64,000 nucleotides of DNA from a virus (lineage: Duplodnaviria > Heunggongvirae > Uroviricota > Caudoviricetes). Within the stretch, counting starts at the first letter, position 1. Every line of letters begins with the position of its first letter. A program made the translations under genes and the position numbers. The notes under the pieces were generated by a model that worked only from the letters and a program-made list of their open reading frames with translations, was not told where the DNA came from and ran no database searches. Of this stretch, positions 3,924-17,180 are shown piece after piece. The stretch is taken from positions 1 through 64,000 of the IMG/VR virus record IMGVR_UViG_3300027734_000050; one strand, 5' to 3'.

Positions 3924-3998
3924 GGGCCAATAGCTTAATGGTAAAGCAACCGACTCATAATCGGTCGAGTCTTGGTTCAATTCCAAGTTGGCCCACCA
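3924..3998 (+). tRNA. tRNA-Met/Ile2 (anticodon CAT)
   Basis: Acceptor stem GGGCCAA/TTGGCCC, T-loop GGTTCAATTCC and anticodon loop CTCATAA. The 3' CCA is encoded. Confidence 0.8.
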
Positions 3999-4004
3999 TT
4001 TACA

Positions 4005-4415
4005 ATGAAGAGAACCGTTGACTACAATCTAGAAAAGGACATCCGGTCATGTGAGTGGATGCTGAAAAAGGTCATGGACAGTGAGACCTACGCACAGAAT
4101 CTCTATGCAGCCATGTGCAACAATGTGTTCCAACCCAACCAAGTATGGCCTCGACTCAAAGATGAATACTGGTCATGCTCATGGCGAGCAGCCGGCGGTA
4201 TCATTGCCGACTTGAGAGGTCAAGACGAAGCCGATGGTATCGTTGCCGAATTGAGAGGGCAAGGCGATTACATGGACTGGTATTGCTCGGGCATCTTTGG
4301 AGCAGGCGAGGCAGATAGTTATCAAGGCTATGTGAGTGAGGGCACTGTGACAGATGAGATCCGTCAAGACCTTTTTGCCATAGGGTGGACGGTAGAACCC
4401 TATCCAAAGGATTAA
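4005..4415 (+). CDS. hypothetical protein (~136 aa)
   Basis: ORF begins MKRTVDYN just after the tRNA. Confidence 0.45.
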   Translation: MKRTVDYNLEKDIRSCEWMLKKVMDSETYAQNLYAAMCNNVFQPNQVWPRLKDEYWSCSWRAAGGIIADLRGQDEADGIVAELRGQGDYMDWYCSGIFGAGEADSYQGYVSEGTVTDEIRQDLFAIGWTVEPYPKD

Positions 4416-4501
4416 AAAATTCAATAGCCTAATGCTATTAAAAAGCATTGACACATAGGTGTTGCATGCTATATACTTGCGTTGACAACCAAGGAGAACG
4501 C

Positions 4502-4951
4502 ATGTCACTCACAATCAAAAACTTAGAAAGTGCCCTGGCTGGAGAAAGCCAGGCACACATCAAATATCGTTATTTTGCAAGACTTGCTCGAGCAGAAGGC
4601 TACGAGGAAGTAGCCCGCCATTTCGAGCATACAGCAGATCAAGAACTGTTACATGCATGGAGCCACCTAGAATTGCTGATCGGAAAACCCTCAACACGGG
4701 AGTGCCTGATCCGGGCAATCGAAGGGGAAACTTACGAGTTTGAGACCATGTATCCCGAATTCCGCAGGGCTGCTGAACACGAAGGCGATGCCCGTGCTGT
4801 AGCAGAAGCCAACACTCAGATTTCTGAATCAAAAGAGCATGCAGAGCAATTTGCTGCGGTGTTGGCCCGGGCAGAGAAGAAGTTTGCTGCTCTAGCAAAG
4901 ATCGAAGCCCGCCATGCAGCGGCTTATAAAGAAAAATTGGAGTCACTATAA
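4502..4951 (+). CDS. rubrerythrin/ferritin-like di-iron protein
   Basis: The motif E..AH.KYRYFA..A matches a rubrerythrin-type ferritin-like domain, and the protein has paired EX2H-like helices. RBS AAGGAGAACG. Start at M MSLTIKN. Confidence 0.65.
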   Translation: MSLTIKNLESALAGESQAHIKYRYFARLARAEGYEEVARHFEHTADQELLHAWSHLELLIGKPSTRECLIRAIEGETYEFETMYPEFRRAAEHEGDARAVAEANTQISESKEHAEQFAAVLARAEKKFAALAKIEARHAAAYKEKLESL

Positions 4952-5085
4952 TGGAACATGTTTGTGTAGTATGTGGACACATCCACGATGAAGAAACCGA
5001 AGGCACCTGGGATTCATTGCCCGATGATTTTGTTTGCCCAGAATGCGGCTGCGGTCGAGAAGAATATCAAGACCTGGTGGTGTAG
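4951..5085 (+). CDS. rubredoxin (44 aa)
   Basis: CVVCGH...CPECG, i.e. two CxxCG knuckles. The start overlaps the rubrerythrin stop as TAATG. Confidence 0.75.
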   Translation: MEHVCVVCGHIHDEETEGTWDSLPDDFVCPECGCGREEYQDLVV

Positions 5086-5094
5086 TGTGTAAAT

Positions 5095-5772
5095 ATGGGT
5101 ATAATGCCCGACACGAGCACCCCAAAACCCCTGATCGCCCTGTTCTCTCACCATCCTGAATGCAGCAATCAATGCTGTGAGGGGATCGAAAGAGCATTAG
5201 GCAGTCACTATGATATACAAAGATTTGACGAAAAAACCCTAGATGCTGATCTCCTAGCATCTGCTGCTGTAGTGGCATTTCCTGGCGGTATTGGGGATGC
5301 TGATAGTTACTACGACTTCTTCCTACGCAAAAAAGCCAACATGGTAGCAGACTATGTGGCACAGGGTGGTAGGTATCTGGGCATCTGCATGGGAGCATAC
5401 TGGGCAGGACATTGGTTCTTTGACATCTTGCAGGATGTAAAATGCGAACAATACATCAAAAGACCCGGTGCAGATGTGCGTAAGAGTTATGGCACAGTCA
5501 CACCAGTGGACTGGCAAGGGCAACGGCACAACATGTTCTTTTGGGATGGATGTGCATTAGTCGGGGATGAAAGCAAGTTTGATGTAGTCGCTCGCTACCA
5601 AAACGGAGACCCGATGGCTATTGTGCAAGGACGGATCGGGCTGATAGGGTGCCATCCAGAGAGCACAGAAATCTGGTTCGAAAAGCCCAGGCAATACATA
5701 TCGCAGCACTGGCATCAGGGGCGGCATCATGAACTATTGTTGCGATTTGTCGACGATCTAATGAAAAAGTAG
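5095..5772 (+). CDS. class I glutamine amidotransferase-like / BPL_N-like protein
   Basis: GGIGDADSYYDF...GGRYLGICMGAY...GCHPE suggests a Cys-His-Glu triad arrangement. Confidence 0.45.
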   Translation: MGIMPDTSTPKPLIALFSHHPECSNQCCEGIERALGSHYDIQRFDEKTLDADLLASAAVVAFPGGIGDADSYYDFFLRKKANMVADYVAQGGRYLGICMGAYWAGHWFFDILQDVKCEQYIKRPGADVRKSYGTVTPVDWQGQRHNMFFWDGCALVGDESKFDVVARYQNGDPMAIVQGRIGLIGCHPESTEIWFEKPRQYISQHWHQGRHHELLLRFVDDLMKK

Positions 5773-5773
5773 G

Positions 5774-5803
5774 TTGACTCGAAACGGCTCTATGCTATAT
5801 AAT
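5774..5803 (+). promoter_or_regulatory. sigma70-type promoter (TTGACT ... TATAAT)
   Basis: TTGACTcgaaacggctctatgcTATATAAT ends about 7 nt before the ATG at 5810, so the mRNA may be leaderless. Confidence 0.45.
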
Positions 5804-5809
5804 AGGGCT

Positions 5810-6058
5810 ATGTTTAAAATCTACTACACAGATCCGGTGAGCGATGCGAGTCACTCACACAATGTTCTTACCCTGACCGAAGCCCTGCAATACACAGAAG
5901 GATGGCGGCGGATGGGCATGACTTTCGTGACCATGGTCAGTGAAAACCCCGATTCCGTGGGCCGCCCTGGTGTAGACTCAGTGGTGGATGGCAAGACTCC
6001 TGATGGAGTAGCCTACACCTGGAACAAGGCAAGTCGAATTGGAAAGACAAGGAAATAG
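5810..6058 (+). CDS. hypothetical protein (~82 aa)
   Basis: ATG at 5810 is the first start downstream of the promoter's -10 element. In frame with ORF 5774-6058. Confidence 0.4.
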   Translation: MFKIYYTDPVSDASHSHNVLTLTEALQYTEGWRRMGMTFVTMVSENPDSVGRPGVDSVVDGKTPDGVAYTWNKASRIGKTRK

Positions 6059-6059
6059 C

Positions 6060-6527
6060 ATGCCAAAGTGTTATCAGTTAGTAGGTGTGCCCGGTTCGGG
6101 TAAAAGCACCTGGCATTCGGAACAGGACTGGTTGCAGACGGCTGCCTACATCAGCACGGATCGTTATGTAGAAGAATTCGCTAAGAATATGGGCAAGACC
6201 TACAGCGAAGTGTTCAAAGAAGTCATGCCTGAATGTGTGAAATACATGACCGGTGATGCAGTCCATGCCCGTGAAGCGGGTCAAGACATTGTGTGGGATC
6301 AAACTAGCACCACAGTTGCAAGCCGTTCTCGTAAGTTTGCTATGTTGCCTGACTATGAGCATATCGCTGTGGTGTTTGCTACACCTGAACCTGCTGAACT
6401 AGTAATGAGATTAGACAGTCGTTACGATTCAGGAAAAATTATTCCAGATCAAGTAGTACAAGATATGATCAACAATTGGGAAGAACCTACCCTAGAAGAA
6501 GGTTTTAAAGAAATTTGGAGAGCATAA
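6060..6527 (+). CDS. P-loop kinase (polynucleotide-kinase/zeta-toxin-like AAA_33 fold)
   Basis: Walker A GVPGSGKST at the N-terminus. Small (~155 aa) kinase fold. Confidence 0.6.
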   Translation: MPKCYQLVGVPGSGKSTWHSEQDWLQTAAYISTDRYVEEFAKNMGKTYSEVFKEVMPECVKYMTGDAVHAREAGQDIVWDQTSTTVASRSRKFAMLPDYEHIAVVFATPEPAELVMRLDSRYDSGKIIPDQVVQDMINNWEEPTLEEGFKEIWRA

Positions 6528-7117
6528 TGCCAGCAGTATTTTTGGTATCAGACACACATTTTGGCCACAAAGGTATGTGTACTTTCACGCGATCAGACGG
6601 CGTGACCAAGTTGCGTCCATGGGACACACCCGAAGAAATGGACGAAGCCATGGTCAAGGCCTGGAACGAGCGTGTGGGTCCCAAGGACAAGGTATATCAC
6701 TTGGGCGATGTGGTGATCAACCGCAAAAGTTTAGCCACCATGAGCCGCTTGAACGGCGACAAGGTGTTGATCCGTGGTAACCACGACATCTTCCCTGACG
6801 ACGAATATCGCAAGTATTTCCGCGAGTTGCGGGCATACCATGTGATGAACGGCATGATCTTGAGCCACATCCCTATCCATGAAGAATCATTGGGCAGGTT
6901 TGGTGTGAACATCCACGGTCACTTACATGCTGCTCGTGTGATGAAGCGTGGGCCAGCCTCGGGCGAATTTGTGAGTGCTGTGGTTGATCCACGGTATCAT
7001 TGTGTGTGCGTGGAGCATACAGACTTTGCTCCTATCTTGTTTGAGGATGTGATGAAGAGGATCACTGCCGAAGGTGGGACCATTGGATTCCGCAACGGCA
7101 ACGGTCCAACTATGTAA
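6527..7117 (+). CDS. calcineurin-like metallophosphoesterase
   Basis: Motifs DTHFGH, GDVV, GNHD and GHLH are the canonical metallophosphoesterase signatures. The start overlaps the kinase stop. Confidence 0.7.
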   Translation: MPAVFLVSDTHFGHKGMCTFTRSDGVTKLRPWDTPEEMDEAMVKAWNERVGPKDKVYHLGDVVINRKSLATMSRLNGDKVLIRGNHDIFPDDEYRKYFRELRAYHVMNGMILSHIPIHEESLGRFGVNIHGHLHAARVMKRGPASGEFVSAVVDPRYHCVCVEHTDFAPILFEDVMKRITAEGGTIGFRNGNGPTM

Positions 7118-7253
7118 GGTGGTCTTCTCGCCTGCTCCCTTTCACCCACACCGAGTGATACAGCAAAGGAGAAGGGTGAAAGGGGATTGAGCCGCAGGGA
7201 CCAAATGCCTGCGTGGGATTCGGTAACCCACATTTATTAGACAGTAAAACAAC

Positions 7254-8483
7254 ATGACCAACTTCTATCTAAGACAGTGGGATTATTTACATCACACCGT
7301 CCAACCATTTTATTGGACGGTGTTCAATCATGAGACTGATCAATCAACACGATTCAACTTCAAACATGACGCTATAGTTTACAGAAAAACTTTACCACAT
7401 GCAACATTGTATTTTCATTGGTACGAAGAACAGTTTTCTAAGCTAAATGTATCAATGGAACCTCCTGAGTCATTGGCTGAGTTATACAGACAGCGAGCAC
7501 AAGAATTACGAGATGCCTACAAATATCTTAGATTAAGTTTCAGTGGTGGTGCAGATAGCTTAACCGCGTTACACAGTTTTGTAGATAATAATATACATCT
7601 TGATGAGATTGTGGTTGTGGACTACTTTGATGGATCCAACTATGACGATCCAATGAAATCGTCTGGACGAGAAATTAAGTTACATGCACTGCCATATCTA
7701 AAACAAATCGCACATCTCATACCAAATACCAAGCTCACTGTGGTCAACACCACTGCCAAAGATGACAATGATATGTTTAATGATTTTTCGGATGACCCCG
7801 AGAAGCATCCAACTTTTGATACCTTGGAAGGGCAACTGCATTTTGGGGTAGAAACTTGGTCACTGGGCAAGTTCATGATGCAGACCCCTCGCGAAAGTTG
7901 TTGCGATATCCACGGTGGTAGCAAAGTCAAACTGTTCAAGAACCGAGATAAGTGGTATTTTTATTGGGTAGATGGTGCTATGTCTGATCTAAACATGTGT
8001 GCTGCCTATCCTGAAGATTTCTTCATCAGCCGAACCATACCCAACTTGTATCTCAAAACAGTTTACTTGTTGAAAAATTTTTACATATCTCAGAAGTTTG
8101 ATGATGTCACCATCAATGAGTTTCCAGATCATCCCAAGAATCACCCGGCCTTCAATGTAGGGCTAGGCAGGAATTTGGCACCTGCACTTGCCACATACAA
8201 GACGTATTTTTCATCGCACAACCCATTGGACTGGAAGAATCATTTTATATCAGGGTGGCATTCGACCTTGTTCTTCAAGAACGTCGTAAACACCCCCGAA
8301 GGAGACAAGTGGATAAAAAACTACAAGCAAAACATAACGTCTATCATCGCAACAGCCGGTGACGAGTGGAATGTGGATAAACTAGGCAACCCGGTACCGG
8401 CATTCGGGCGCAAAGGACACTTGAGCAAGTTCTATTGTCTCAATGATGGGCGAGCCTATGACTCAGTGGATGCTAAAAAATAA
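7254..8483 (+). CDS. PP-loop superfamily ATP pyrophosphatase (409 aa)
   Basis: LRLSFSGGADSLTALH is a SGGxDS PP-loop motif, as found in TilS, MnmA, QueC and NAD-synthetase. Confidence 0.55.
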   Translation: MTNFYLRQWDYLHHTVQPFYWTVFNHETDQSTRFNFKHDAIVYRKTLPHATLYFHWYEEQFSKLNVSMEPPESLAELYRQRAQELRDAYKYLRLSFSGGADSLTALHSFVDNNIHLDEIVVVDYFDGSNYDDPMKSSGREIKLHALPYLKQIAHLIPNTKLTVVNTTAKDDNDMFNDFSDDPEKHPTFDTLEGQLHFGVETWSLGKFMMQTPRESCCDIHGGSKVKLFKNRDKWYFYWVDGAMSDLNMCAAYPEDFFISRTIPNLYLKTVYLLKNFYISQKFDDVTINEFPDHPKNHPAFNVGLGRNLAPALATYKTYFSSHNPLDWKNHFISGWHSTLFFKNVVNTPEGDKWIKNYKQNITSIIATAGDEWNVDKLGNPVPAFGRKGHLSKFYCLNDGRAYDSVDAKK

Positions 8484-8956
8484 TTTGCCTTTTTGGCAAA
8501 AAATCGCAGAAAAAGTTGCGATCAATGGTTGACAAGAGATAAATAATCCTATACAATACATGCTATGAACCAGTCGATACATCATTTATCCCTCAAACCG
8601 CTGACACAGAGTCAGGGCGTCTGCCCCACCTTGTGGTTTGCGATTGAGATGAATTATGATCGTGCGACAGGGTCAGGGGTCCGAGGAGACCTAGTATAAC
8701 ATAGCGTATACTTAACTTCCAAAGGACCCCAGGACTAAACACCCTGGGGTTCGTCTTTTATAGTGTGGAGCAACGAGGGCTCACCCCGCACTTAAAACAT
8801 GGGGAAACGGGCGGCCTGTGGGATGAAACTCCTTTTGTGGAGTGAAAAATCACAGCGTATTAAAGCATATCGGTGGCGTCACAGATCCGGGTCGGGGTGG
8901 CAGCTAACACTCAATATGCTTTAATACACGCATTCCAAAGAGTGCGTAAATAATCA
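8484..8956 (+). other. 470-nt non-coding, highly structured region (candidate ncRNA / processing region)
   Basis: No ORF of 60 aa or more. Promoter TTGACA-17-TACAAT at 8528-8556. GC-rich hairpins include ccccagg...cctgggg at 8727-8749. Confidence 0.35.
8867..8927. repeat. 14-bp perfect inverted repeat (gtattaaagcatat / atatgctttaatac) around a 33-nt GC-rich loop
   Basis: Arms at 8867-8880 and 8914-8927. The aagcatat...atatgctt core also occurs in the tmRNA intervening-segment stem at 21403/21468. Confidence 0.6.
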
Positions 8957-9733
8957 ATGCCTGTATTCTTAGACTCAGTGATAGAGTTCTACATCACCAA
9001 TCAATGCAACCTGGCCTGCACCAACTGCAATAGGTTCAATGACCATGACTTTCGTGGACATTACTCATGGGAAGACTCAGCAGAGGCTGTTGAAGCATGG
9101 AGTAAACGCATCGATGCACCCATGCTCACCATCATTGGTGGAGAACCTAGCCTACATCCTGGATTGGAAACCTGGGTCTCAAATCTTCGTAGATTATGGC
9201 CCGACACTGAGATCATGATACAAAGCAACGGAACCAATCCAAAATTGGCTCGTGAACTTGATTTATGGACAAGATACCGCACAGGATGGGGTATAAGTGT
9301 ACACCAACCACAGATGAGGCACACATTGGAAAAACAATGGGATCAGATCACCCGAGGGTTTTTTGACAACATTGAATTCACTCCGGCTGCTGTGATTCCG
9401 CAAGGTGACGGGTTCACTGTACATCATAGTAATCCTGTAACAGCATTCAAGGCATGTACCATGCGGCACAGCCATACCATATTCCAAGGACGCTTGTATA
9501 AGTGTCCAGTGATGGCTGTATTGCCCGAGTTCCGCACTCAACATTCAGTTGAGATGGACTCAAGACAACAACAGTTGTTATCGCAGTATCAGCCTTTGAG
9601 TGCGGATTGTTTGGAACAACAGTTGATAGACTTTGTTGATACAAGACATCAACCGATCGATCAATGTGAATTTTGCCCTGGCGAATTTGATTTCCAGCCA
9701 GTGGTATTCCATAAAAGAAAAAAACTGCTCTGA
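8957..9733 (+). CDS. radical SAM protein (QueE/NrdG-like small rSAM)
   Basis: CNLACTNC is a CxxxCxxC motif at residues 17-24. IIGGEP motif also present. Confidence 0.65.
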   Translation: MPVFLDSVIEFYITNQCNLACTNCNRFNDHDFRGHYSWEDSAEAVEAWSKRIDAPMLTIIGGEPSLHPGLETWVSNLRRLWPDTEIMIQSNGTNPKLARELDLWTRYRTGWGISVHQPQMRHTLEKQWDQITRGFFDNIEFTPAAVIPQGDGFTVHHSNPVTAFKACTMRHSHTIFQGRLYKCPVMAVLPEFRTQHSVEMDSRQQQLLSQYQPLSADCLEQQLIDFVDTRHQPIDQCEFCPGEFDFQPVVFHKRKKLL

Positions 9734-9803
9734 TGGCGCAATTGGTAGACGCACTATCTTGAGGTGGTAGAAAGTGTGAGTTCGACTCTCACTCAGAGCA
9801 CCA
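9726..9803 (+). tRNA. tRNA, anticodon GAG (Leu-type anticodon but class I shape with a short variable loop)
   Basis: Acceptor GCTCTGA/TCAGAGC, discriminator A with CCA, T-loop GAGTTCGACTCTC and anticodon loop TTGAGGT. Confidence 0.6.
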
Positions 9804-9814
9804 AGAAATTATCG

Positions 9815-9893
9815 GCCCCGGTGGACAAATCTGGCAAAGTCGCTTCTCTCAAAAGGAAGAGTTCTGCGAGTTCAACTCTCGCCCGGGGTACCA
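9815..9893 (+). tRNA. tRNA, anticodon CAA (Leu-type anticodon, 3-bp D-stem, short variable loop)
   Basis: Acceptor GCCCCGG/CCGGGGT with ACCA end. T-arm GCGAGTTCAACTCTCGC. Anticodon stem CTTCT/GGAAG with loop CTCAAAA. Confidence 0.55.
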
Positions 9894-9900
9894 AATTATT

Positions 9901-9976
9901 GCAACTTTAGCTGATGTGGTCATAGCGCCGGTCTGAAGAGCCGGTGAACCAGGTTCGATCCCTGGAGGTTGCACCA
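9901..9976 (+). tRNA. tRNA-Phe (GAA)
   Basis: Acceptor GCAACTT/AGGTTGC. Anticodon loop CTGAAGA. T-loop GGTTCGATCC. CCA end. Confidence 0.75.
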
Positions 9977-9986
9977 TAAAACATGT

Positions 9987-10062
9987 TGGGGTGTCGCCTA
10001 GAGGCCTAAGGCACTGGTCTTTGAAATCAGTATCATGAGTTCGAATCTCATCTCCCCTGCCA
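9987..10062 (+). tRNA. tRNA-Gln (TTG)
   Basis: Gln-like TGGGGTG start. Anticodon stem CTGGT/ATCAG with loop CTTTGAA. T-arm ATGAGTTCGAATCTCAT. Ends GCCA. Two acceptor-stem mismatches. Confidence 0.55.
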
Positions 10063-10107
10063 TCTAACAAAGACCCGTCAACATGGCGGGTTATTAAAAA
10101 AGCAGTT

Positions 10108-10136
10108 GACCAGTATCGTGGTTGATGCTACAATAG
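10108..10136 (+). promoter_or_regulatory. sigma70-type promoter TTGACC-17-TACAAT
   Basis: ttgaccagtatcgtggttgatgctacaat lies upstream of tRNA-Glu. Confidence 0.5.
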
Positions 10137-10207
10137 AGACTAGTTAGAAAGAAGCACGGTGCATCGACGCTGTGCTGCAAGTTCGTTAAAAATTTCAGCA
10201 AGTATTT

Positions 10208-10282
10208 GCTCGGTTCGTCTATCGGTTAGGACGCTGCCCTTTCAAGGCGGAAAGACGAGTTCGATTCTCGTACCGAGTACCA
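10208..10282 (+). tRNA. tRNA-Glu (TTC)
   Basis: Acceptor GCTCGGT/ACCGAGT. Glu-like D-arm TCTATCGGTTAGGAC. Anticodon stem CTGCC/GGCGG with loop CTTTCAA. T-arm ACGAGTTCGATTCTCGT. CCA end. Confidence 0.8.
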
Positions 10283-10357
10283 TATTGAAGCACATTAAAA
10301 CACGCCCCTAGTAGCAGTAGCGAATCAAGGGTGGAAGGTTGAGTGTGCTTCAATATG
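10281..10357. repeat. 14-bp inverted repeat (catattgaagcaca / tgtgcttcaatatg) anchored on the CCA of tRNA-Glu, with a 49-nt loop
   Basis: Arms at 10281-10294 and 10344-10357. It joins the tRNA-Glu 3' end to the 5' end of the next tRNA-like element. Confidence 0.6.
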
Positions 10358-10422
10358 GTGATAGCTTAGTGGGAGAGTGCAGTCGTTGGCTGTGGGCACA
10401 GGTTCAAATCCTGTTCACTATT
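10355..10422 (+). pseudogene. degenerate tRNA-like element (acceptor and T-arm intact, no valid anticodon arm, no CCA)
   Basis: Acceptor ATGGTGA/TCACTAT. D-arm TAGCTTAGTGGGAGAGT. T-arm ACAGGTTCAAATCCTGT. Only 19 nt lie between the D-arm and T-arm, and these form a competing hairpin CTGTG/CACAG. Confidence 0.3.
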
Positions 10423-10434
10423 TCGTATTTTGCA

Positions 10435-10800
10435 AAAAGAAAACACTGTCATCTAGGACTTGTCGGGTGAATAAAACAGTTGGGTAAAAGTCCTTACGGC
10501 GAGTCGCTATATAAGAACACATTTCAGCGGGATAGACCGTGTTGGATAGTTTCTGTTTGGTACAGTATCCGAAGTGTGTTCCTATTTAGTAAAGAATCAA
10601 GTGGAAAGCAAGAGCCACAAAGTAAGCATCGCCGGGTCAGGAAATGTGTCCGGGACGTGTAGGCCGCGCAACCTATACAAACAACGATGGGGTAAGAGCC
10701 CTCATAACATTTTCGCCAAATTTAGGTCTCAAAGTGTTCATGGACGCACACAAGCCTGTCACGCTTGAAGAAGGGGATCGTTACCCCTTGGGACCGCCAA
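10435..10800 (+). other. ~365-nt non-coding spacer inside the tRNA array (possible ncRNA)
   Basis: Only short overlapping ORFs of 60-64 aa without RBS. Flanked by tRNA-like elements. Confidence 0.25.
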
Positions 10801-10806
10801 GTTTTT

Positions 10807-10944
10807 GCGCTGGATTGATATTGCGGTTGGAGTTGATCGCCCAATGGCAGACAGGTTTAATTCCTGTTAGGTGCACCAAGTTATGCAGTGATTGGAGAAG
10901 GCAGATGCCCCGTGCATCGCATACTAGTTGCCACAGAGGTTCGA
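10807..10944 (+). pseudogene. two degenerate tRNA-like elements, each ending ...GCACCAAGTT
   Basis: The elements at 10807-10878 and 10881-10944 each have a canonical T-arm (ACAGGTTTAATTCCTGT and AGAGGTTCGATTCCTTT) and a GCACCA 3' end. No convincing anticodon arm was found. Confidence 0.3.
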
Positions 10945-10969
10945 TTCCTTTGGCTGCACCAAGTTTTAT

Positions 10970-11048
10970 CTGTGTGTGAGAAAGTCCGGTCTAATCTACT
11001 CGCCTTGGAAGTGAGAAATCGTAGGTTCAAATCCTACCGCACAGACCA
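10970..11048 (+). tRNA. tRNA-like, anticodon TGG (Pro), non-canonical D-arm; possibly a pseudogene
   Basis: Acceptor CTGTGTG/CGCACAG. Anticodon stem CTCGC/GTGAG with loop CTTGGAA. T-arm GTAGGTTCAAATCCTAC. ACCA end. The 20-nt D region does not fold into a D-stem. Confidence 0.4.
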
Positions 11049-11259
11049 ATTTTTGAGAGTGTCAGCAAGAGAAAGTCACGCTGAAAAGCTTCTTCGAAGA
11101 GCTTGACAGTGTAACGCAACGGGGGGCGCGAATCCCCAGCAGCAATATAAGTGGACGTTGTGACAAGTATCCCAAGTGGCGTACCGAGACCTTGCCGGCC
11201 TTGTATAATAAGGTGAATGGTTCCGATAATATGGGCGGAACTACTCTCAAATTCAATCT

Positions 11260-11346
11260 GGAGACGTGTGCCGAGTGGCGAAGGCAGCTGACTGTAAATC
11301 AGTGACATAAGAAACACCGTAGGTTCGATCCCTACCGGCTCCACCA
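11260..11346 (+). tRNA. tRNA-Tyr (GTA), type II with long variable arm
   Basis: Acceptor GGAGACG/CGGCTCC. Anticodon stem GCTGA/TCAGT with loop CTGTAAA. Variable arm GACATAAGAAACACC. T-arm GTAGGTTCGATCCCTAC. CCA end. Confidence 0.75.
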
Positions 11347-11352
11347 TATTTC

Positions 11353-11427
11353 GGGGGATTAGTGATAATGGTAGCACATGTGCTTTGCAAGCATGAAGCA
11401 GGAGTTCGATTCTCCTATCCTCCACCA
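11353..11427 (+). tRNA. tRNA-Ala (TGC)
   Basis: Acceptor GGGGGAT/ATCCTCC has a G3:U70 pair. Anticodon loop TTTGCAA. T-arm AGGAGTTCGATTCTCCT. ACCA end. Confidence 0.75.
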
Positions 11428-12162
11428 TTACCGAAATGCACGTTGTCTGAATGCTTCACTGAATACGCCATCCACTCTCAACGAGTAGCAGGCTTGCGGT
11501 GCAGGATCTGACCCGTGATGATTATTGGTGTTGAACCAATTACAATTTCCTGATGAATAGATTTTTTGATCAGTTTCAACATCTAATAGATAAAATTTCT
11601 TCCGATCAGGAGCAAAGTCAATCCAGATGAATTCATCCGAAGCGGGGCGGCTATCATCTGCATAGTCGGTATGTATTGGACTATACCCGCCGGGATAGTT
11701 AATGAATAAAGTCGTGCGACCGTAGTCGCTAAAAATCTCTTGGCGATCAAGCCACTCATAGAAGAAGGCAAGTTGTATATCTTCTGGTAGCGCCACGCAT
11801 TCAGTGGCATGATGCTTGGTAGCGTAGTCTAATGCGTATCGACTGGTTATGGTAAATGTACATGCAGTAACATCTTTTTCAAATACAATGTAATTGGCAA
11901 ATTGATCGCATCTGATTAGATCAGCAACAACTTCTCGTAGGCTAGAGTCAGCGACCATGTCAGGGTTGTCTTCAAACTCATCTTGATAATCATGGGTGCC
12001 AAGACTACCATCTTTAAAAAGCGAACCGTAGAATTTGGTTGGCTTGAGCAGGTGATGATTTTTGGCAATAAATGCCGAGACATAAGGTTTGATTGCAAGG
12101 AGGCCGTTGAGGTCTATTAGATGGTCAAAATTTAAAAACGGTTGATTGTGTGCTAAGAACAT
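11428..12162 (-). CDS. cupin / 2OG-Fe(II)-oxygenase-like protein (aspartyl beta-hydroxylase-like)
   Basis: HTDYADD ... NWFNTNNHHG gives a possible His-x-Asp...His facial triad. It is the only minus-strand gene in the first half of the window. Confidence 0.35.
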   Translation of the reverse strand: MFLAHNQPFLNFDHLIDLNGLLAIKPYVSAFIAKNHHLLKPTKFYGSLFKDGSLGTHDYQDEFEDNPDMVADSSLREVVADLIRCDQFANYIVFEKDVTACTFTITSRYALDYATKHHATECVALPEDIQLAFFYEWLDRQEIFSDYGRTTLFINYPGGYSPIHTDYADDSRPASDEFIWIDFAPDRKKFYLLDVETDQKIYSSGNCNWFNTNNHHGSDPAPQACYSLRVDGVFSEAFRQRAFR

Positions 12163-12213
12163 AAAATATTTATTGCATGGTACTTTTTACTAAGTATTTT
12201 TAAGAGTTTATAT

Positions 12214-12292
12214 TCCGAGAAACCCGAGCTAGGTGCATGGGCGTGACTGTTAATCACTGGTTAGGTGGGTTCGAACCCCACACTCGGAGCCA
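12214..12292 (+). tRNA. tRNA-like, anticodon GTT (Asn), atypical D-arm
   Basis: Acceptor TCCGAGA/ACTCGGA with GCCA end. Anticodon stem GTGA/TCAC with loop CTGTTAA. T-arm GTGGGTTCGAACCCCAC. Confidence 0.5.
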
Positions 12293-12299
12293 AATTTTA

Positions 12300-12373
12300 G
12301 CCCTACTAGTACAATGGCAGTACACTGGTTTTGTAATCCTGTGATGGCAGTTCGATTCTGTCGTGGGGCACCA
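12300..12373 (+). tRNA. tRNA-Thr (TGT), weak anticodon stem
   Basis: Acceptor GCCCTAC/GTGGGGC. D-arm GTACAATGGCAGTAC. Anticodon loop TTTGTAA. T-arm GGCAGTTCGATTCTGTC. ACCA end. Confidence 0.6.
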
Positions 12374-12378
12374 CATAT

Positions 12379-13035
12379 ATGAAAAAAGCCGTGATCCTAG
12401 GCTGTAGCCATTCAGTTGGAGCAGAGATGCATCAAGAACCAGGATTGGTTTTTGACAGCTTCAATCAAGCCAACGACTATGAACAGACTCATTCTTATCC
12501 TGCTCAGATTGCACAGGTATTAGGATATGATCCAATCAATCTCAGCATATCAGGCGGCAGCAATGACGCCATGTTCAGACGGTTCACAGAACAAACTTTA
12601 ACACCCAACGACATAGTGATTGCTTGTTGGACAGGTGTGAATAGAAGTGAAATCTATGATAGCCAATGGATTGCAATGGCTCCGGGCGCAGTGCCAGATC
12701 AAGTCAATGCAGACTACTTTAAACAGTGGTTGTTGTATTCTGCCAACACTGAAGTAGGTATGTTGAATAAAACAAAAAACATCCTTGCACTCAATGCTCT
12801 GGCTCATGCACAAGGCATCCAAGTGATCAACATAGACAGTTTTTGGCCAGTGCCAGATGTTGCCTGGCCCAACTCAGTAGAGTGGGCTGTGAACATAGAT
12901 TTTATGGCATGGTGCCAACAACACAACTTTCCCCACACAGAGAAAGTTCATTTTTTCAAACCAGCACATGACTCGTTTGCCCAGCATGTGCTACAGAATA
13001 TTGCGGGTAGGGTGGCCACCACACCGGTCTCATAA
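12379..13035 (+). CDS. SGNH/GDSL-like hydrolase
   Basis: The N-terminal VILGCSHSVG is a GDS(L) block with a Ser nucleophile. ISGGSND is a block II-like motif. Confidence 0.45.
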   Translation: MKKAVILGCSHSVGAEMHQEPGLVFDSFNQANDYEQTHSYPAQIAQVLGYDPINLSISGGSNDAMFRRFTEQTLTPNDIVIACWTGVNRSEIYDSQWIAMAPGAVPDQVNADYFKQWLLYSANTEVGMLNKTKNILALNALAHAQGIQVINIDSFWPVPDVAWPNSVEWAVNIDFMAWCQQHNFPHTEKVHFFKPAHDSFAQHVLQNIAGRVATTPVS

Positions 13036-13075
13036 GCCAGGTGCATCGGCAGTTCGAATCTGTCACCCGCATCCA
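13002..13075 (+). tRNA. tRNA-like, anticodon CAT (Met/Ile2), small D-arm; overlaps the 3' end of the preceding CDS
   Basis: Acceptor TGCGGGT/ACCCGCA. Anticodon loop CTCATAA. T-arm GGCAGTTCGAATCTGTC. TCCA end. Confidence 0.4.
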
Positions 13076-13195
13076 AGTCAAGTCCATGCGTCACTCAAAC
13101 TGAATGAGTGTTTACCCGTCAGGGAGTCTCTGGACAGTTTTTCAAGTCCATACAGCCTCGATCTGATGGGGCCTCGTCACTGGACTGATTTCTTT

Positions 13196-13272
13196 ACCGC
13201 CTTGGCTCAACTGGATAGAGCACTGGATTACGAATCCGGGGGTTGGGAGTTCGAATCTCTCAGGTGGTACCA
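13196..13272 (+). tRNA. tRNA-Arg (ACG)
   Basis: Acceptor ACCGCCT/AGGTGGT. D-arm GCTCAACTGGATAGAGC. Anticodon stem CTGGA/TCCGG with loop TTACGAA. T-arm GGGAGTTCGAATCTCTC. ACCA end. Confidence 0.8.
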
Positions 13273-13277
13273 TTCAT

Positions 13278-13351
13278 GGCCCTTTAGTTAAAAGGTATAA
13301 CAGACGCTTGATAAGCGTCAGTCGGAGGATCGTTACCTCCCGGGGCTACCA
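13278..13351 (+). tRNA. tRNA-Ile (GAT) with non-canonical T-loop ATCGTTA
   Basis: Acceptor GGCCCTT/CGGGGCT. D-stem GTTA/TAAC. Anticodon stem GACGC/GCGTC with loop TTGATAA. T-stem GGAGG/CCTCC. ACCA end. Confidence 0.55.
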
Positions 13352-13356
13352 AACAG

Positions 13357-13385
13357 TTGACAACATTGTCAAAATGTTGTATAAT
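13357..13385 (+). promoter_or_regulatory. perfect-consensus sigma70 promoter TTGACA-17-TATAAT
   Basis: ttgacaacattgtcaaaatgttgtataat. Confidence 0.55.
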
Positions 13386-13490
13386 AGATTTTTTACACAG
13401 GAGCACAGCATGAAACATGCTAAACCATAGTGTCAATCCAGATCCCATGTAGGTCCGGGTTGGCACGTGAAAGACAATTTTACATACCAA

Positions 13491-13565
13491 CCCTCTAAGA
13501 TGTTAAGGCAGCATGCCGGACTCTTAATCCGTGACGTCCGAGTTCAAATCTCGGTGGAGGGACCA
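13491..13565 (+). tRNA. tRNA-Lys (CTT)
   Basis: Acceptor CCCTCTA/TGGAGGG. Anticodon loop CTCTTAA. T-arm CCGAGTTCAAATCTCGG. ACCA end. Confidence 0.65.
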
Positions 13566-13569
13566 ATAT

Positions 13570-13645
13570 GGGGCTATAGTTAAGCGGTTATAACATCACC
13601 CTTTTAAGGTGTAAGACCTCGGTTCGAATCCGAGTGGCCCTACCA
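13570..13645 (+). tRNA. tRNA-Lys (TTT)
   Basis: Acceptor GGGGCTA/TGGCCCT. D-stem GTTA/TAAC. Anticodon loop CTTTTAA. T-arm CTCGGTTCGAATCCGAG. ACCA end. Confidence 0.7.
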
Positions 13646-13796
13646 TTTAGTGAAACACTTTGCCCAAGCGAGAAACACATCTGTGGAGTCGCTCTCTGCA
13701 CGAGGATGTGAAAAGTCGGAATTATCCTTGCCCCCGCTCTTGGGGATGCGAATTAGGAAAAGGCAAAGGGAAGAGACAGAGTGTTTCACTAAATGG
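13643..13796. repeat. 17-bp inverted repeat (ccatttagtgaaacact / agtgtttcactaaatgg) anchored on the CCA of tRNA-Lys, with a ~120-nt GC-rich loop
   Basis: Arms at 13643-13659 and 13780-13796. A third copy of agtgaaaca lies at 13913. Confidence 0.6.
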
Positions 13797-14016
13797 TAAA
13801 ATTGAAGTTGACCTAGATCTATCCTGTGATGGATATGAGCAAGCGTGAAATATACGACATGTTGCCGGTGAGTCTGCGAGACTTGTTCTGGTCATGCCGA
13901 GTGCCTCAATATAGTGAAACAACAATCTCATCATGTGGAAGATGTAATACTTGCGTGACCTTGAAAGAACAAGGCATTCGCAAATAGAAAGCAAGGCATA
14001 ATTCGTACTATATAGT

Positions 14017-15549
14017 ATGATGTATGACGCTATTATTTTTACAGATTGTTGGGATATGATCGGCAATATCCCGGCGATTGGTGCATACAAATGTGCCCAT
14101 TCTCTAAGAAAAAATGGATACACTTGCTTGGTAGTAAATCATGTTGGAGAGTTTGAGTTTGAGGAACTGGTTGATCTATTGGACCAGGCCATTGGAAATA
14201 ATACTCGTCTGATTGGGTTTAGCACTACTTTCATATCCAACAAACTTGAATTAGAATCCAGCCTCTTCCCAGATGGGTTCTCCAGCCGTAATGAAATTTT
14301 GTTACCTCAAGGTGTAGAATTTGAGAGAAAAATAATAAAGTACATCCGAGATAAAAACAATCTTGTTAAAACTGTAGTGGGTGGCACAAAAGCCACGGTG
14401 AATTATTCAAATCGAGACATAGATTATGTATGTATCGGATACAGCGAAGTTAGTATTGTAAATCTCATGGATCACTTGATTAAAGAGATTGATCTTCAGA
14501 ACAGTCATCGAAACATTTTTGGTCGTGTTATCTTAGATGATAGATATGCACCATCATACGAATTCTCCAAGGAAGATATGATATGGATTGACACTGATGT
14601 GGTGAACCATAAATGTTTGCCTATCGAGATCGGTCGTGGATGTATTTTTCAATGCAAATTTTGTTCCTATCCATTGATCGGGAAGAAGAATCTAGACTAT
14701 GTAAAATCCTACGATTGTTTACAACATGAATTACAAAGAAACTATGAGCAGTTTGGTGTAAAAAATTATCTCATCATGGACGACACGTTTAATGACAATG
14801 TTGAAAAACTAAACCGCATTGAGTCTGTAGTGTCAAAATTAGATTTCCAACCGGAATTTTGGGCATACATCAGACTAGATCTACTTTGCACCAGACCCGA
14901 AACTTTGGATATGTTGTATCGCATTGGTGTTAGATCCATGACGTTTGGTATAGAAACGATGAATCCCAGTGCTGCCAAAAGCATCGGCAAAGGGTTTGAT
15001 CGAAATAAACTCGTTGCCAAACTAGATGAAATTGCGGAAAAATATCCCGACATGTACACAGGAAGTGGCTTTATAGTGGGACTTCCTGGCGAGACACCAG
15101 ATGATTTAAGAAAAACTTCTGATCGATTGATTTCTAGAGAAATTAAGTTACATAATTGGCAATGGGCACCATTGTTTATTGAACGTACAGGAACAGTGAC
15201 TTATACCAGTGAATTCGGACGTGACTTTGAAAAATATGGTTATGTGGATCAGACTCCATTGGATTCGTCTCGGATTGTCAACTGGAAATCTAATGTCATG
15301 ACTCGTGATGAATCTACAGAATTAGCAAATGAACTTAACTCCGTAGCCCAAGATCATGCAGGATTATATCCAGGTAGCATGACAGAAATTAGCACATATG
15401 GAAAATTTCAATGGAAAGATATCATGAAAAACTATCGAAAATTTTCTAAGTTGAATGTCCATAACAACCTACTCGTAGAACATCTTAGACCGAAGTTTAT
15501 GCAAGAATACAAGAAAAAGTTGTTTGATCTGGTTGCAGAGAAATCTTAA
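14017..15549 (+). CDS. B12-binding-domain radical SAM protein (class B rSAM-like)
   Basis: The N-terminal part is a Rossmann-like B12-binding region. GRGCIFQCKFCS is a CxxxCxxC motif at about residue 208. 510 aa. Confidence 0.6.
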   Translation: MMYDAIIFTDCWDMIGNIPAIGAYKCAHSLRKNGYTCLVVNHVGEFEFEELVDLLDQAIGNNTRLIGFSTTFISNKLELESSLFPDGFSSRNEILLPQGVEFERKIIKYIRDKNNLVKTVVGGTKATVNYSNRDIDYVCIGYSEVSIVNLMDHLIKEIDLQNSHRNIFGRVILDDRYAPSYEFSKEDMIWIDTDVVNHKCLPIEIGRGCIFQCKFCSYPLIGKKNLDYVKSYDCLQHELQRNYEQFGVKNYLIMDDTFNDNVEKLNRIESVVSKLDFQPEFWAYIRLDLLCTRPETLDMLYRIGVRSMTFGIETMNPSAAKSIGKGFDRNKLVAKLDEIAEKYPDMYTGSGFIVGLPGETPDDLRKTSDRLISREIKLHNWQWAPLFIERTGTVTYTSEFGRDFEKYGYVDQTPLDSSRIVNWKSNVMTRDESTELANELNSVAQDHAGLYPGSMTEISTYGKFQWKDIMKNYRKFSKLNVHNNLLVEHLRPKFMQEYKKKLFDLVAEKS

Positions 15550-15569
15550 AAGTGTTATAATAGTTCTAT

Positions 15570-15645
15570 GGTGTCATTAGTGTAGTGGCCTGCACCCTGC
15601 TCTGTGAAAGCGGTAGTACCGGATCGATACCGGTATGGCACCCCA
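15570..15645 (+). tRNA. tRNA-His (GTG) with encoded G-1
   Basis: Extra 5' G precedes the acceptor GTGTCAT/ATGGCAC. Discriminator is C. Anticodon stem CTGCT/AGCGG with loop CTGTGAA. T-arm ACCGGATCGATACCGGT. CCA end. Confidence 0.8.
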
Positions 15646-15652
15646 AATTTTC

Positions 15653-15727
15653 AGTTGTGTGACGTAGATGGATGCGTACCGCCCTCATAAGGCGAGGAGG
15701 TTGGATCGATACCAACCACAACTACCA
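15653..15727 (+). tRNA. tRNA-Met/Ile2 (CAT)
   Basis: Perfect acceptor AGTTGTG/CACAACT. Anticodon loop CTCATAA. T-arm GTTGGATCGATACCAAC. ACCA end. Confidence 0.8.
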
Positions 15728-15730
15728 CAT

Positions 15731-15813
15731 GCCCTGGTGACTTATGCAAATTGGCACAGCTACTGGTCTTAGAAGCCAGGTTTTTGCGGGTTCGAGTCCC
15801 GCCTAGGGCACCA
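15731..15813 (+). tRNA. tRNA, 83 nt, anticodon TAG (Leu) with oversized D region; atypical
   Basis: Acceptor GCCCTGG/CTAGGGC. Anticodon stem CTGGT/GCCAG with loop CTTAGAA. T-arm GCGGGTTCGAGTCCCGC. ACCA end. Confidence 0.5.
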
Positions 15814-15870
15814 AGATGACTCGCCTTGATTGATGGCGTATAATAGGAAAAGTAGTCAATCACAAATCTC

Positions 15871-15945
15871 GGGGGATTGGTATAGTTGGTAACATACCGC
15901 CATGGCATGGCGGAGTCAGCGGCTCGAATCCGCTATCCTCCACCA
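15871..15945 (+). tRNA. tRNA-Ala (GGC)
   Basis: Acceptor GGGGGAT/ATCCTCC, identical to the other Ala tRNA including G3:U70. Anticodon stem CCGCC/GGCGG with loop ATGGCAT. T-arm AGCGGCTCGAATCCGCT. ACCA end. Confidence 0.75.
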
Positions 15946-15952
15946 ACAACAT

Positions 15953-16042
15953 AGAGGATGCAGTAGGATGGTTCCTACACCTGTTTGGAAAACAGGCGAC
16001 TGGCGTGAGCTGGTCGGGGTTCAATTCCTCCTTCCTCTGCCA
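15953..16042 (+). tRNA. tRNA-Ser (GGA), type II
   Basis: Acceptor AGAGGAT/TTCCTCT. Discriminator G. Anticodon stem CCTGT/ACAGG with loop TTGGAAA. Long variable arm. T-loop GGGGTTCAATTCC. CCA end. Confidence 0.7.
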
Positions 16043-16064
16043 CAACAATAGAAAGGAACAAGTC

Positions 16065-16493
16065 ATGAATGAATTTGATGTATTAGTGGGCAAGCGTATA
16101 AATGGCTTGTTTATAGCCAACGACAAGTGGACACTGGTATTCCGTGATGTGTCCGGGCGCCGTTATCGTTTTGACACCGAAAATGATTGCTGCAACTCTG
16201 TGTGGTTTAACCATGTGACAGGTGCAAACATCCTGGGTGAAGGCAATACCTTCGATCTGCTACGCGGTGCAGAAGTGTTATCAGTAGAAGCCAAGGGCTG
16301 GGATGAAAACCGCAGCGACGAAGATGGATACGAAGTGGTTCAAGATGCGTTCTGGACCATACGCACCAACCGTGGCTACATAGACCTTGAAGTGCGTAAC
16401 AGCCACAATGGTTACTATGGTGGCAGCGTGAGCTATAGCGGCACCAATGTGGGTGAGTTGGCCGACATGGTACAGATCACCGAAGACTTCTAA
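16065..16493 (+). CDS. hypothetical protein (~142 aa)
   Basis: Start at MNEFDV after the RBS AAAGGAACAAG. The upstream part of the 16005 ORF overlaps tRNA-Ser and was trimmed. Confidence 0.5.
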   Translation: MNEFDVLVGKRINGLFIANDKWTLVFRDVSGRRYRFDTENDCCNSVWFNHVTGANILGEGNTFDLLRGAEVLSVEAKGWDENRSDEDGYEVVQDAFWTIRTNRGYIDLEVRNSHNGYYGGSVSYSGTNVGELADMVQITEDF

Positions 16494-16570
16494 CTCTGTA
16501 TGGCGCAGCCCGGTAGCGCACTTGCATGGGGTGCAAGGGGTCGCAAGTTCGAATCTTGCTACAGAGACCA
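16494..16570 (+). tRNA. tRNA-Pro (GGG)
   Basis: Perfect acceptor CTCTGTA/TACAGAG. Anticodon stem CTTGC/GCAAG with loop ATGGGGT. T-arm GCAAGTTCGAATCTTGC. ACCA end. Confidence 0.75.
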
Positions 16571-16571
16571 C

Positions 16572-16645
16572 AGACTCTTAGTTCAATGGAAGAACGATAC
16601 CCTGACATGGTATAGAAACAAGTTCAATTCTTGTAGAGTCTACCA
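16572..16645 (+). tRNA. tRNA-Val (GAC)
   Basis: Perfect acceptor AGACTCT/AGAGTCT. Anticodon stem ATACC/GGTAT with loop CTGACAT. T-arm ACAAGTTCAATTCTTGT. ACCA end. Confidence 0.8.
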
Positions 16646-16730
16646 CTTGACAGGTATTGCGAATCCTGCTATAATTGTGGCATAGATAGAAAACATCTAT
16701 CCGTGCTCTTTAAAAATTTCGTAAGTTTTT

Positions 16731-16804: not shown

Positions 16805-16807
16805 AAT

Positions 16808-17085: not shown

Positions 17086-17091
17086 AACAAC

Positions 17092-17178: not shown

Positions 17179-17180
17179 GA

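Follow-up and report, generated by a model that had tools for sequence, protein, structure and literature searches.

A rubrerythrin–rubredoxin cassette of the 'cyanobacterial-type' lineage in uncultured phages, a candidate peroxide reductase fed by the host

Classical rubrerythrins, such as those of Desulfovibrio vulgaris (1ryt) and Pyrococcus furiosus (1nnq/3mps), are four-helix di-iron bundle proteins with a canonical ExxH pair on helix D and a fused, short-spaced rubredoxin-like domain, and they are found mainly in anaerobes (PMC5114695). Sulerythrin of Sulfolobus tokodaii (1j30) and ferriperoxin have one domain only and come from aerobes; in this 'aerobic-type' lineage the helix-D ExxH is also canonical, and the associated genes encode a DUF3501 protein and an Fe-S (iron–sulfur) oxidoreductase, not rubredoxin (PMC5114695). 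A further, 'cyanobacterial-type' lineage (group 5) has been treated as a separate adaptation to oxygen, and consists of cyanobacterial members that have a rubredoxin domain of the long-spaced type, and of a sub-cluster from Proteobacteria without that domain (Cardenas et al. 2016, PMC5114695). To this lineage belongs RbrA (Alr1174) of Anabaena/Nostoc sp. PCC 7120, which, according to a review, is a peroxidase dependent on NADPH and FNR that shields nitrogenase, an Fe-S enzyme sensitive to oxygen and peroxide, from H2O2 (PMC6616624, citing Zhao et al. 2007). Here we describe a rubrerythrin gene and a rubredoxin gene of this kind that lie side by side at positions 4502-5085 of a stretch of viral DNA of 64,000 nucleotides (Duplodnaviria; Heunggongvirae; Uroviricota; Caudoviricetes; positions 1 to 64,000 of IMG/VR record IMGVR_UViG_3300027734_000050), called the window below. 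The pair recurs as a unit in related viral contigs, and appears to be an ancient capture, since maintained by the phages, of the first two genes in a bacterial oxidative-stress operon made up of rubrerythrin (rbr), rubredoxin (rd) and rubredoxin reductase. On balance, we favour the reading that it forms a rubredoxin-fed peroxide reductase that would depend on a reductase of the host. The locus has the following elements:

4448..4477, + strand: sigma-70-like promoter candidate, TTGACA, 18 nucleotides, TATACT (11 of 12 consensus matches; a pattern match only)
4491..4497, + strand: Shine-Dalgarno-like AAGGAGA, 4 nucleotides before the ATG at 4502
4502..4951, + strand: rubrerythrin-family di-iron four-helix protein of 149 amino acids, erythrin domain only (PF02915)
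4939..4942, + strand: internal GGAG in the last rubrerythrin codons, 8 nucleotides before the rubredoxin ATG
4949..4953, + strand: TAATG stop/start overlap of 1 nucleotide (rubrerythrin TAA, 4949-4951; rubredoxin ATG, 4951-4953)
4951..5085, + strand: short rubredoxin of 44 amino acids (PF00301), stop at 5083-5085

The product of the first gene matches the Pfam Rubrerythrin family over profile positions 1-136 of 137 (PF02915, 59.1 bits, E 7.9e-16, cut-off 22.8). Its best solved relative in the PDB by phmmer is P. furiosus rubrerythrin (E 6e-21), and its identity to classical rubrerythrins is about 40%. An AlphaFold2 (AF2) model with a predicted local distance difference test score (pLDDT) of 82.7 has helices at residues 3-31, 35-60, 65-94 and 97-148, and Foldseek places it close to sulerythrin and to the rubrerythrins of P. 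furiosus, Clostridioides difficile and Burkholderia pseudomallei, with template modelling (TM) scores of 0.75-0.78 and root mean square deviations (rmsd) of 1.4-1.8 Å (TM 0.78 and rmsd 1.8 Å for 1nnq, TM 0.77 for sulerythrin). The model superposes well on these domain-swapped rubrerythrins and sulerythrin and poorly on the compact D. vulgaris form; it is a predicted four-helix-bundle erythrin fold. A preliminary description of this DNA had recognised a rubrerythrin-type di-iron protein in the open reading frame (ORF) 4502-4951, and the Pfam match, the PDB matches and the fold model bear this out. The 149-residue protein contains no Cys motif and no fused rubredoxin domain, rubredoxin being a separate gene. 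The product of that gene matches PF00301 (31.7 bits, E 1.5e-7, cut-off 23) and carries the Cys knuckles C5-x2-C8-G and C29-P-x-C32-G (CVVCG...CPECG), consistent with a rubredoxin that has a predicted Fe(Cys)4 site. Its matches in the PDB are classical rubredoxins (E 2e-8), among them the naturally short forms of 45-46 residues 6rxn and 6nw0; the 44-residue rubredoxin with two CxxCG motifs had thus been named correctly, and the overlap of its start with the upstream stop as TAATG had been read correctly as well. Neither protein of the pair has a family in PHROGs. An identical rubrerythrin protein is present in the Joint Genome Institute (JGI) samples 3300009158, 3300009164, 3300009183 and 3300010885, which probably stem from freshwater lakes in Canada.

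Close relatives of the rubrerythrin occur on 588 IMG/VR contigs, the best 80 of which are 72-85% identical and lie on contigs of up to 356 kb. For the comparison of gene neighbourhoods we used 85 related loci, namely these 80 from IMG/VR and five from metagenome/NCBI contigs (L001-L085). Rubredoxin follows rubrerythrin directly in 83 of the 85, one of the two exceptions being cut by the contig end, and the pairing is therefore far beyond chance. The junction is just as stable, with a 1-nucleotide overlap in 75 of the 85 loci, an ATGA overlap in four and a gap of 1-10 nucleotides in another four; in all 76 loci of the TAATG type, a Shine-Dalgarno-like motif lies within 18 nucleotides upstream of the rubredoxin ATG. 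The internal GGAG and the TAATG correspond to classic signals of translational coupling, and since the two genes would also share one transcript, rubrerythrin and rubredoxin are likely to be made together. We prefer the start at 4502 because AAGGAGA lies 4 nucleotides before this ATG; sites of the AAGGAG/AAGGA type, with a few AGGAG/AGGGA, are found at the equivalent position in nearly all of 45 loci listed among 65 distinct related ones. A reading initiated at TTG 4448 (4448-4951) is unlikely, because the promoter candidate overlaps its beginning and because the protein is mostly called with 149 residues on related contigs. Promoter-like sites with at most one mismatch per hexamer are present within 110 nucleotides upstream in 19 of the 65 distinct loci. 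Pairwise dN/dS values (NG86) are about 0.10 for rubrerythrin and about 0.14 for rubredoxin, and although dS is near saturation, so that these values are rough, they indicate purifying selection on both genes. What is conserved is the two-gene cassette, while the genes that flank it are shuffled.

In a scan of cellular genomes, with one genome per prokaryotic species, the nearest relatives of the phage rubrerythrin, with full-length identities of 52-65%, are betaproteobacterial, and the holders include Polynucleobacter, Limnohabitans, Rhodoferax, Polaromonas, Zoogloea, Aromatoleum, Gallionella, Sideroxydans and Undibacterium. Melainabacteria come next at about 50%, followed by cyanobacterial fusion proteins at 39-45%; RbrA, which shares the conserved residues of the lineage, is 40-49% identical to the phage protein. 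In the proteobacterial loci a separate rubredoxin ORF follows directly on the same strand, as in the phages, and in cyanobacteria the two are fused in a protein of about 237 residues, a Rosetta-stone fusion within the same subfamily which argues that rubrerythrin and rubredoxin work as a pair. By its sequence relationships we assign the phage rubrerythrin to the 'cyanobacterial-type' group 5 lineage; the phage rubredoxins fall outside the 27-32 residues between Cys pairs that mark the 'long-spaced' partner rubredoxin of this group. Neighbour-joining groups the phage sequences in one clade, outside that of the Betaproteobacteria and cyanobacteria; as this tree is crude, we take from it no more than an old capture with later divergence among phages. 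A search of representatives clustered at 50% identity, in which only 21 clusters reach E 1e-30, agrees with this. Rubrerythrins already recorded in other phages differ from it: that of Pelagibacter phage Mosig also matches PF02915, but is 40% identical, has no adjacent rubredoxin and lies among T4-like replication genes, and those on phage contigs from anaerobic digesters, again PF02915 proteins, cluster with homologues from anaerobes.

The betaproteobacterial loci place the pair in a recognisable context. Their rubrerythrin is a one-domain protein with the same unusual E-S-x-x-H and C-terminal ExxH motifs as in the phages (see below), and rbr and rd are separated by a spacer of usually a few to about 60 nucleotides, whereas the phage genes overlap. 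A further difference lies in what follows. In Polynucleobacter and Gallionella the next gene encodes a Pyr_redox_2 flavoprotein with a C-terminal Rbx_binding domain, the best NCBIfam match of which is NorW NADH:flavorubredoxin reductase (322-353 bits, just below the equivalog cut-off). Of 53 proteobacterial loci, 48 have a homologue of this reductase in third place and on the same strand; among the five without it, at least three (L088, L094, L110) end soon after the rubrerythrin match. A divergent LysR-type regulator, with OxyR as its best match (224 bits), accompanies the operon in 27 loci. In Polynucleobacter parvulilacunae (L087, 1739-7210) an NADH:flavin oxidoreductase, the divergent OxyR-like regulator, rubrerythrin, rubredoxin, the NADH:rubredoxin reductase and a nearby Fe/Mn superoxide dismutase make up a compact oxidative-stress island, and a Gallionella locus (L098) has a similar island, the superoxide dismutase being named for Polynucleobacter only. 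The bacterial locus thus holds a complete chain from NADH via reductase, rubredoxin and rubrerythrin to H2O2, and seems to be peroxide-responsive. A tblastn search at E 1e-8 gave no homologue of the reductase, either for the 64-kb window or for 89 phage loci, and the OxyR-like regulator is likewise missing from the phage. With no rubredoxin reductase encoded there, electrons for the pair would have to come from the host.

The mechanism that we propose for the phage pair follows from this organisation. The di-iron site of the rubrerythrin would reduce H2O2, and possibly organic peroxides, to water, with the rubredoxin as its dedicated one-electron donor, and the rubredoxin would in turn be reduced by an NAD(P)H:rubredoxin reductase of the NorW/RubB type in the host, or the electrons may come from FNR as reported for RbrA. 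The host would probably be a betaproteobacterium that possesses the rbr-rd-reductase operon itself. During infection the net effect would be additional peroxide scavenging, and with it less Fenton damage and some protection of iron-dependent enzymes, radical SAM proteins included. The peroxidase reading appears well supported by homology and context, that is, by RbrA within the lineage and by the bacterial rbr-rd-reductase operons beside an OxyR-like regulator, and a peroxide-reducing role, as suggested in the preliminary description, would remain the best one for the pair; the peroxidase activity of the phage protein itself, the path of the electrons and the benefit to the phage are what we infer from it.

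The phage rubredoxin differs from its bacterial counterpart in sequence as well. Compared with rubredoxins of 53-54 residues, alignments show a deletion of about nine residues, and the Cys pairs are separated by 20 residues in 77 phage loci and by 17 in seven, compared with 29 in all 68 cellular partners. Where the cellular proteins read CG[YF]xY, the phage proteins read CGHxH, so that two aromatic residues are replaced by His; the seven phage loci with the 17-residue loop read CGHxLS instead. The conserved phage core is C..CGH.H.E..EG.W..L...F.CPECG, and its four Cys are invariant across the phage loci. From these comparisons, the phage rubredoxin appears to be a derived deletion form of a 29-spaced ancestor within the operon family. 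The natural rubredoxins 6rxn and 6nw0 have a similar length and loop deletion, and align with the phage protein from end to end; the two aromatics after the first CxxCG are where the phage clade differs from them by its His residues. The short loop and the CGHxH motif suggest adaptation to new partners, and could mean that the rubredoxin serves mainly as a general low-potential electron carrier, for instance in the reductive activation of radical SAM clusters, and that rubrerythrin is just one client among others. The window ORFs scanned included neither a flavodoxin nor a ferredoxin, which would suit such a role. We nevertheless regard a general carrier as the least probable of the explanations considered here, as the rubredoxin is never apart from rubrerythrin in 83 loci and the two are fused in cyanobacteria. 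Moreover, efficient reduction of radical SAM [4Fe-4S] clusters takes a lower potential than the roughly 0 to -100 mV of rubredoxins.

Several observations weigh against a rubredoxin-fed peroxide reductase. Neither protein reaches its NCBIfam equivalog: the rubrerythrin scores 76.1 bits against a cut-off of 200 for classical rubrerythrin (NF045767), and the rubredoxin scores 32.3 bits against a cut-off of 90 for NF045768, which describes canonical proteins of about 54 residues. The shortened CGHxH rubredoxin may not dock to the host reductase. According to a review, RbrA receives its electrons from FNR with no involvement of the rubredoxin domain (PMC6616624), so that the donor role of rubredoxin in this lineage is only putative. 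In the di-iron site, Ser110 on helix D aligns to the position of the bridging Glu, and Glu109 stands one residue earlier. With this serine, an additional E135xxH138 motif and a lineage that has no structure in the PDB, the chemistry could differ from that of classical rubrerythrin.

The remainder of the site aligns with that of the classical proteins. The candidate ligands are E15, E48, H51, E76, E79, H113 and E109, the last next to S110, which occupies the place of the canonical Glu, and in PDB phmmer and profile alignments E15, E48xxH51, E76xxE79 and H113 coincide with canonical ligands, so that six of seven are in place and helices A-C carry the same E, ExxH and ExxE as the classical proteins. 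On helix D, E-K-I-H and E-K-S-H stand against S-K-E-H in the gapless HMMER alignment to P. furiosus rubrerythrin and the profile alignment to sulerythrin. As the spacing from E76 to E109 (33 residues) equals that from E15 to E48, E109 is likely to be the bridging carboxylate. Relative to the classical form, the unfused phage protein thus has Ser at the helix-D Glu position and, in addition, a helical extension of 25 residues with a further ExxH: on this C-terminal helix, F128-A-A-L-A-K-I-E135-A-R-H138-A-A-A-Y142 reproduces the canonical helix-D pattern. The motif F-A-x-h-A-x-h-E-x-x-H-A-x-x-Y within the C-terminal part (4826-4951, residues 109-149) resembles a duplicated half-helix. MAFFT aligns the canonical helix D to E135xxH138, but to take this motif as the true helix D after a 25-residue insertion is disfavoured by the AF2 turn between helices C and D at residues 95-96 (pLDDT ~90), from which one continuous helix runs from 97 to 148, and by the profile-to-PDB alignments.

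The preliminary description had made the di-iron ExxH ligand pairs the test of its assignment. The first pair, E48xxH51, is canonical, whereas the second reads E-S-x-x-H, so that only one of the two has the ExxH form expected; this E-S-x-x-H is common to the whole lineage including the active RbrA, and is therefore no argument against function. Both E-S-x-x-H and the C-terminal ExxH are present in 77 of 80 cellular loci (L086-L164 range) and in the phage loci checked; for two of the other three cellular loci no rubrerythrin ORF was picked up, and one is without the ESxxH part. In 50 distinct phage sequences E15, E48, H51, E76, E79, E109, S110, H113, E135 and H138 are invariant. We considered a loss or inactivity of the di-iron site as a result of Ser110 and rejected it, as E109, S110 and H113 are invariant throughout the lineage, RbrA included, and selection is strong.

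The same residues could, on the other hand, point to a different enzyme of the same general kind, in which a di-metal centre built from E109-S110-x-x-H113 and E135xxH138 reduces oxygen or another oxidant, for example O2 to water with Mn/Fe, and rubredoxin is still the donor. The invariance of the helix-D motif and of the second ExxH across phage, betaproteobacterial and cyanobacterial members fits this idea, as do the lower confidence of the last 30 residues of the long AF2 helix (pLDDT 63-69) and the PDB profile search, which found no structure of the 'cyanobacterial-type' lineage and gave sulerythrin (E 2e-30) and B. pseudomallei rubrerythrin as the best matches. There is also a precedent, as the reverse rubrerythrin from Clostridium acetobutylicum acts as an NADH oxidase as well as an NADH peroxidase. 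With six of the seven canonical ligands present, an OxyR-like regulator beside the bacterial operons that points to H2O2, and the strong peroxidase activity attributed to RbrA in a review (PMC6616624, citing Zhao et al. 2007), we consider such altered chemistry quite unlikely.

A role in iron handling is less probable still. As a ferroxidase or iron buffer, the protein would support the mass synthesis of radical SAM and 2-oxoglutarate (2OG)-Fe enzymes, with rubredoxin aiding the redox cycling of iron. Rubrerythrins show ferroxidase activity in vitro, the 149-residue protein has a weak match to Pfam Ferritin (27.9 bits), and the phage has nine radical SAM ORFs. The fold model, however, has TM scores of only ~0.4 to bacterioferritins and ferritins, far below those to the rubrerythrins; the NADH:rubredoxin reductase and OxyR-like regulator of the cellular loci fit a catalytic electron chain and not iron storage; and the cassette is unlinked to radical SAM genes in most of the phages. 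We thus view iron handling as highly improbable, and return to the peroxide reductase as the preferred reading.

What the pair says about the oxygen regime of the host differs from the initial expectation. The preliminary description had called such pairs typical of anaerobes and microaerophiles, had taken this pair as a hint of a host at low oxygen, and had suggested that it shields the Fe-S enzymes of the phage. The first statement holds for classical rubrerythrin and not for the 'cyanobacterial-type' lineage (PMC5114695), which oxygenic cyanobacteria possess, as do Polynucleobacter, Limnohabitans, Rhodoferax and other freshwater Betaproteobacteria, so that the low-oxygen host loses its footing. 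Because the cellular holders range from aerobes to microaerophiles (Gallionella, Sideroxydans) and facultative denitrifiers, the gene gives no indication of the oxygen regime. The count of nine radical SAM genes in the window was roughly right, as nine ORFs match PF04055, but only five of them lie above the Pfam cut-off and four slightly below it. The link between these genes and the pair is circumstantial: only 4 of the 85 loci have homologues of the window radical SAM genes at a distance of up to 6 kb from the pair, and two of the radical SAM genes have nine and one close viral relatives, compared with the 588 contigs with rubrerythrin (in a search for close relatives only).

It follows that the pair is unlikely to be adapted specifically to an anaerobe or microaerophile as host and to serve mainly as a shield for oxygen-sensitive radical SAM enzymes, although this explanation has points in its favour, namely the nine radical SAM ORFs within 64 kb, the presence on the closest relative contig (192 kb, rubrerythrin 85% identical) of the radical SAM gene that lies near the pair in the window, the microaerophiles among the cellular holders and the protection of nitrogenase, another oxygen-sensitive Fe-S enzyme, by RbrA according to a review (PMC6616624). 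Against it stand, besides the scarce linkage and the unequal numbers of viral relatives, the make-up of the lineage from cyanobacteria and aerobic or facultative Proteobacteria, and the presence of a rubrerythrin, albeit a lone and different one, in an isolated phage of the aerobe Pelagibacter. Protection of radical SAM enzymes may be a reasonable idea, with the parallel of RbrA and nitrogenase, but linkage and distribution lend it no support. The radical SAM paralogues form a tandem run on the - strand (45554-55686), and in three of them (46830-48041, 48038-49294, 49291-50550) a SPASM-type Fe-S match is on the N-terminal side of the radical SAM core and not, as usual, on the C-terminal side. 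After the run come an AMP-binding enzyme (57976-59058) and ORFs with no annotation, and the whole resembles a cluster for the modification of peptides or metabolites.

A bolder view would be that the phage module has been re-engineered to plug into the host reductase, as judged from its mini-rubredoxin with CGHxH, the deletion of nine residues in the loop and the absence of a reductase of its own, and that it creates a locally reducing state, poor in peroxide and oxygen, that permits oxygen-labile radical SAM chemistry in aerobic freshwater Betaproteobacteria, or else that ESxxH and the extra ExxH form a di-metal site with non-classical chemistry. Even taken together, we would give these two options only a small chance.

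That the window is phage DNA is supported by its context. It holds 37 transfer RNA (tRNA) genes and a transfer-messenger RNA (tmRNA) gene; the tRNA array (3924-21065) lies entirely on the + strand with all 20 amino acids represented, and is followed by the tmRNA (21285-21718) with the tag ANDEQFALAA. Strong matches to PHROG families (phrog_1297 ATPase, 333 bits; phrog_1314, 352 bits; phrog_200, 184 bits) and HNH endonucleases are further features of the window. In view of the tRNA array, the PHROG matches and the IMG/VR membership of the relatives, we rejected bacterial contamination. A DNA search against isolated phages gave no relative for the region, the matches being confined to tRNA genes and one short stretch. 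For the host, the tmRNA scores 120 bits each against the betaproteobacterial model RF01850 and the permuted tmRNA model RF04321, and together with the nearest rubrerythrin homologues this makes a betaproteobacterium plausible, if only as a suggestion. Tetranucleotide usage was uninformative on the host, since its correlations with 8-kb bacterial loci did not track taxonomy. The tRNA and tmRNA set is a very heavy translation-related load for a phage, and itself hints at a betaproteobacterial host.

Immediately downstream of the pair, 9 nucleotides after the rubredoxin stop, begins a further gene:

5095..5772, + strand: BPL_N / class-I glutamine-amidotransferase-like protein of 225 amino acids (PF09825, 56.7 bits)

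Our scan gave no terminator-like site between rubredoxin and this gene, and the gene is probably co-transcribed with the pair in the window, but it lies outside the conserved cassette. The trio of rubrerythrin, rubredoxin and BPL_N-like genes is also present in the closest relatives (L005, L167-L169); a conserved three-gene unit was nonetheless rejected, as homologues of the third gene are found in only 6 of the 85 loci and at variable positions. The BPL_N-like protein has no PHROG or NCBIfam family. On the other side of the pair, the ORF 3972-4415, which a mechanical listing starts at TTG, overlaps the 3' part of the tRNA-Met gene at 3924-3998; gene callers start it further downstream on identical contigs (118 or 136 residues), and the true start is probably internal.

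Other parts of the window are rich in genes that are not directly related to the pair. A MoxR-like AAA ATPase (29440-30525, phrog_1297) is paired with a DUF2201 metallopeptidase/VWA protein (32144-33454, phrog_1314) in the manner of CobS/CobT, and the Pfam domains of the latter contradict the label 'HNH endonuclease' of phrog_1314. Also phage-encoded are a protein of the SPFH/Band-7 type (21749-22606) and, beyond an HNH/NUMOD3 homing-endonuclease-like ORF (22658-23650), a periplasmic solute-binding protein of the SBP_bac_8 family (23979-25040, 156 bits). A sugar-modification set, made up of an NAD-dependent epimerase/dehydratase, a DegT-type aminotransferase and a GFO/IDH/MocA oxidoreductase, is found together with a carbamoyltransferase at 35962-39007 and 42915-44390; on related contigs, such as L001, glycosyltransferases and methyltransferases lie near the rubrerythrin pair.

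The phage auxiliary genes on record already include rubrerythrin, and the cellular lineage is known (PMC5114695). In the library that we searched, no paper combines 'rubredoxin', 'rubrerythrin' and 'phage-encoded'. New are a large monophyletic phage clade of this lineage with a fixed coupling to a shortened rubredoxin, and the recognition of the phage pair as two-thirds of the OxyR-associated rbr-rd-reductase operon. Surveys of auxiliary genes mostly do no more than list the oxidative-stress genes of phages, and here the cassette is among the most widely conserved small modules in a clade of big uncultured viral contigs (up to ~356 kb) from lake and other environmental metagenomes. The lineage corrects the common shortcut that equates rubrerythrin with an anaerobe, and points to a structural question that concerns the whole rubrerythrin lineage, namely that of its non-canonical helix-D ligands and the extra ExxH. 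For the biology of these phages, the cassette provides a testable hypothesis, in which the phage would boost the last two steps of a peroxide-reducing electron chain of its host and rely on the reductase of the host for the first.

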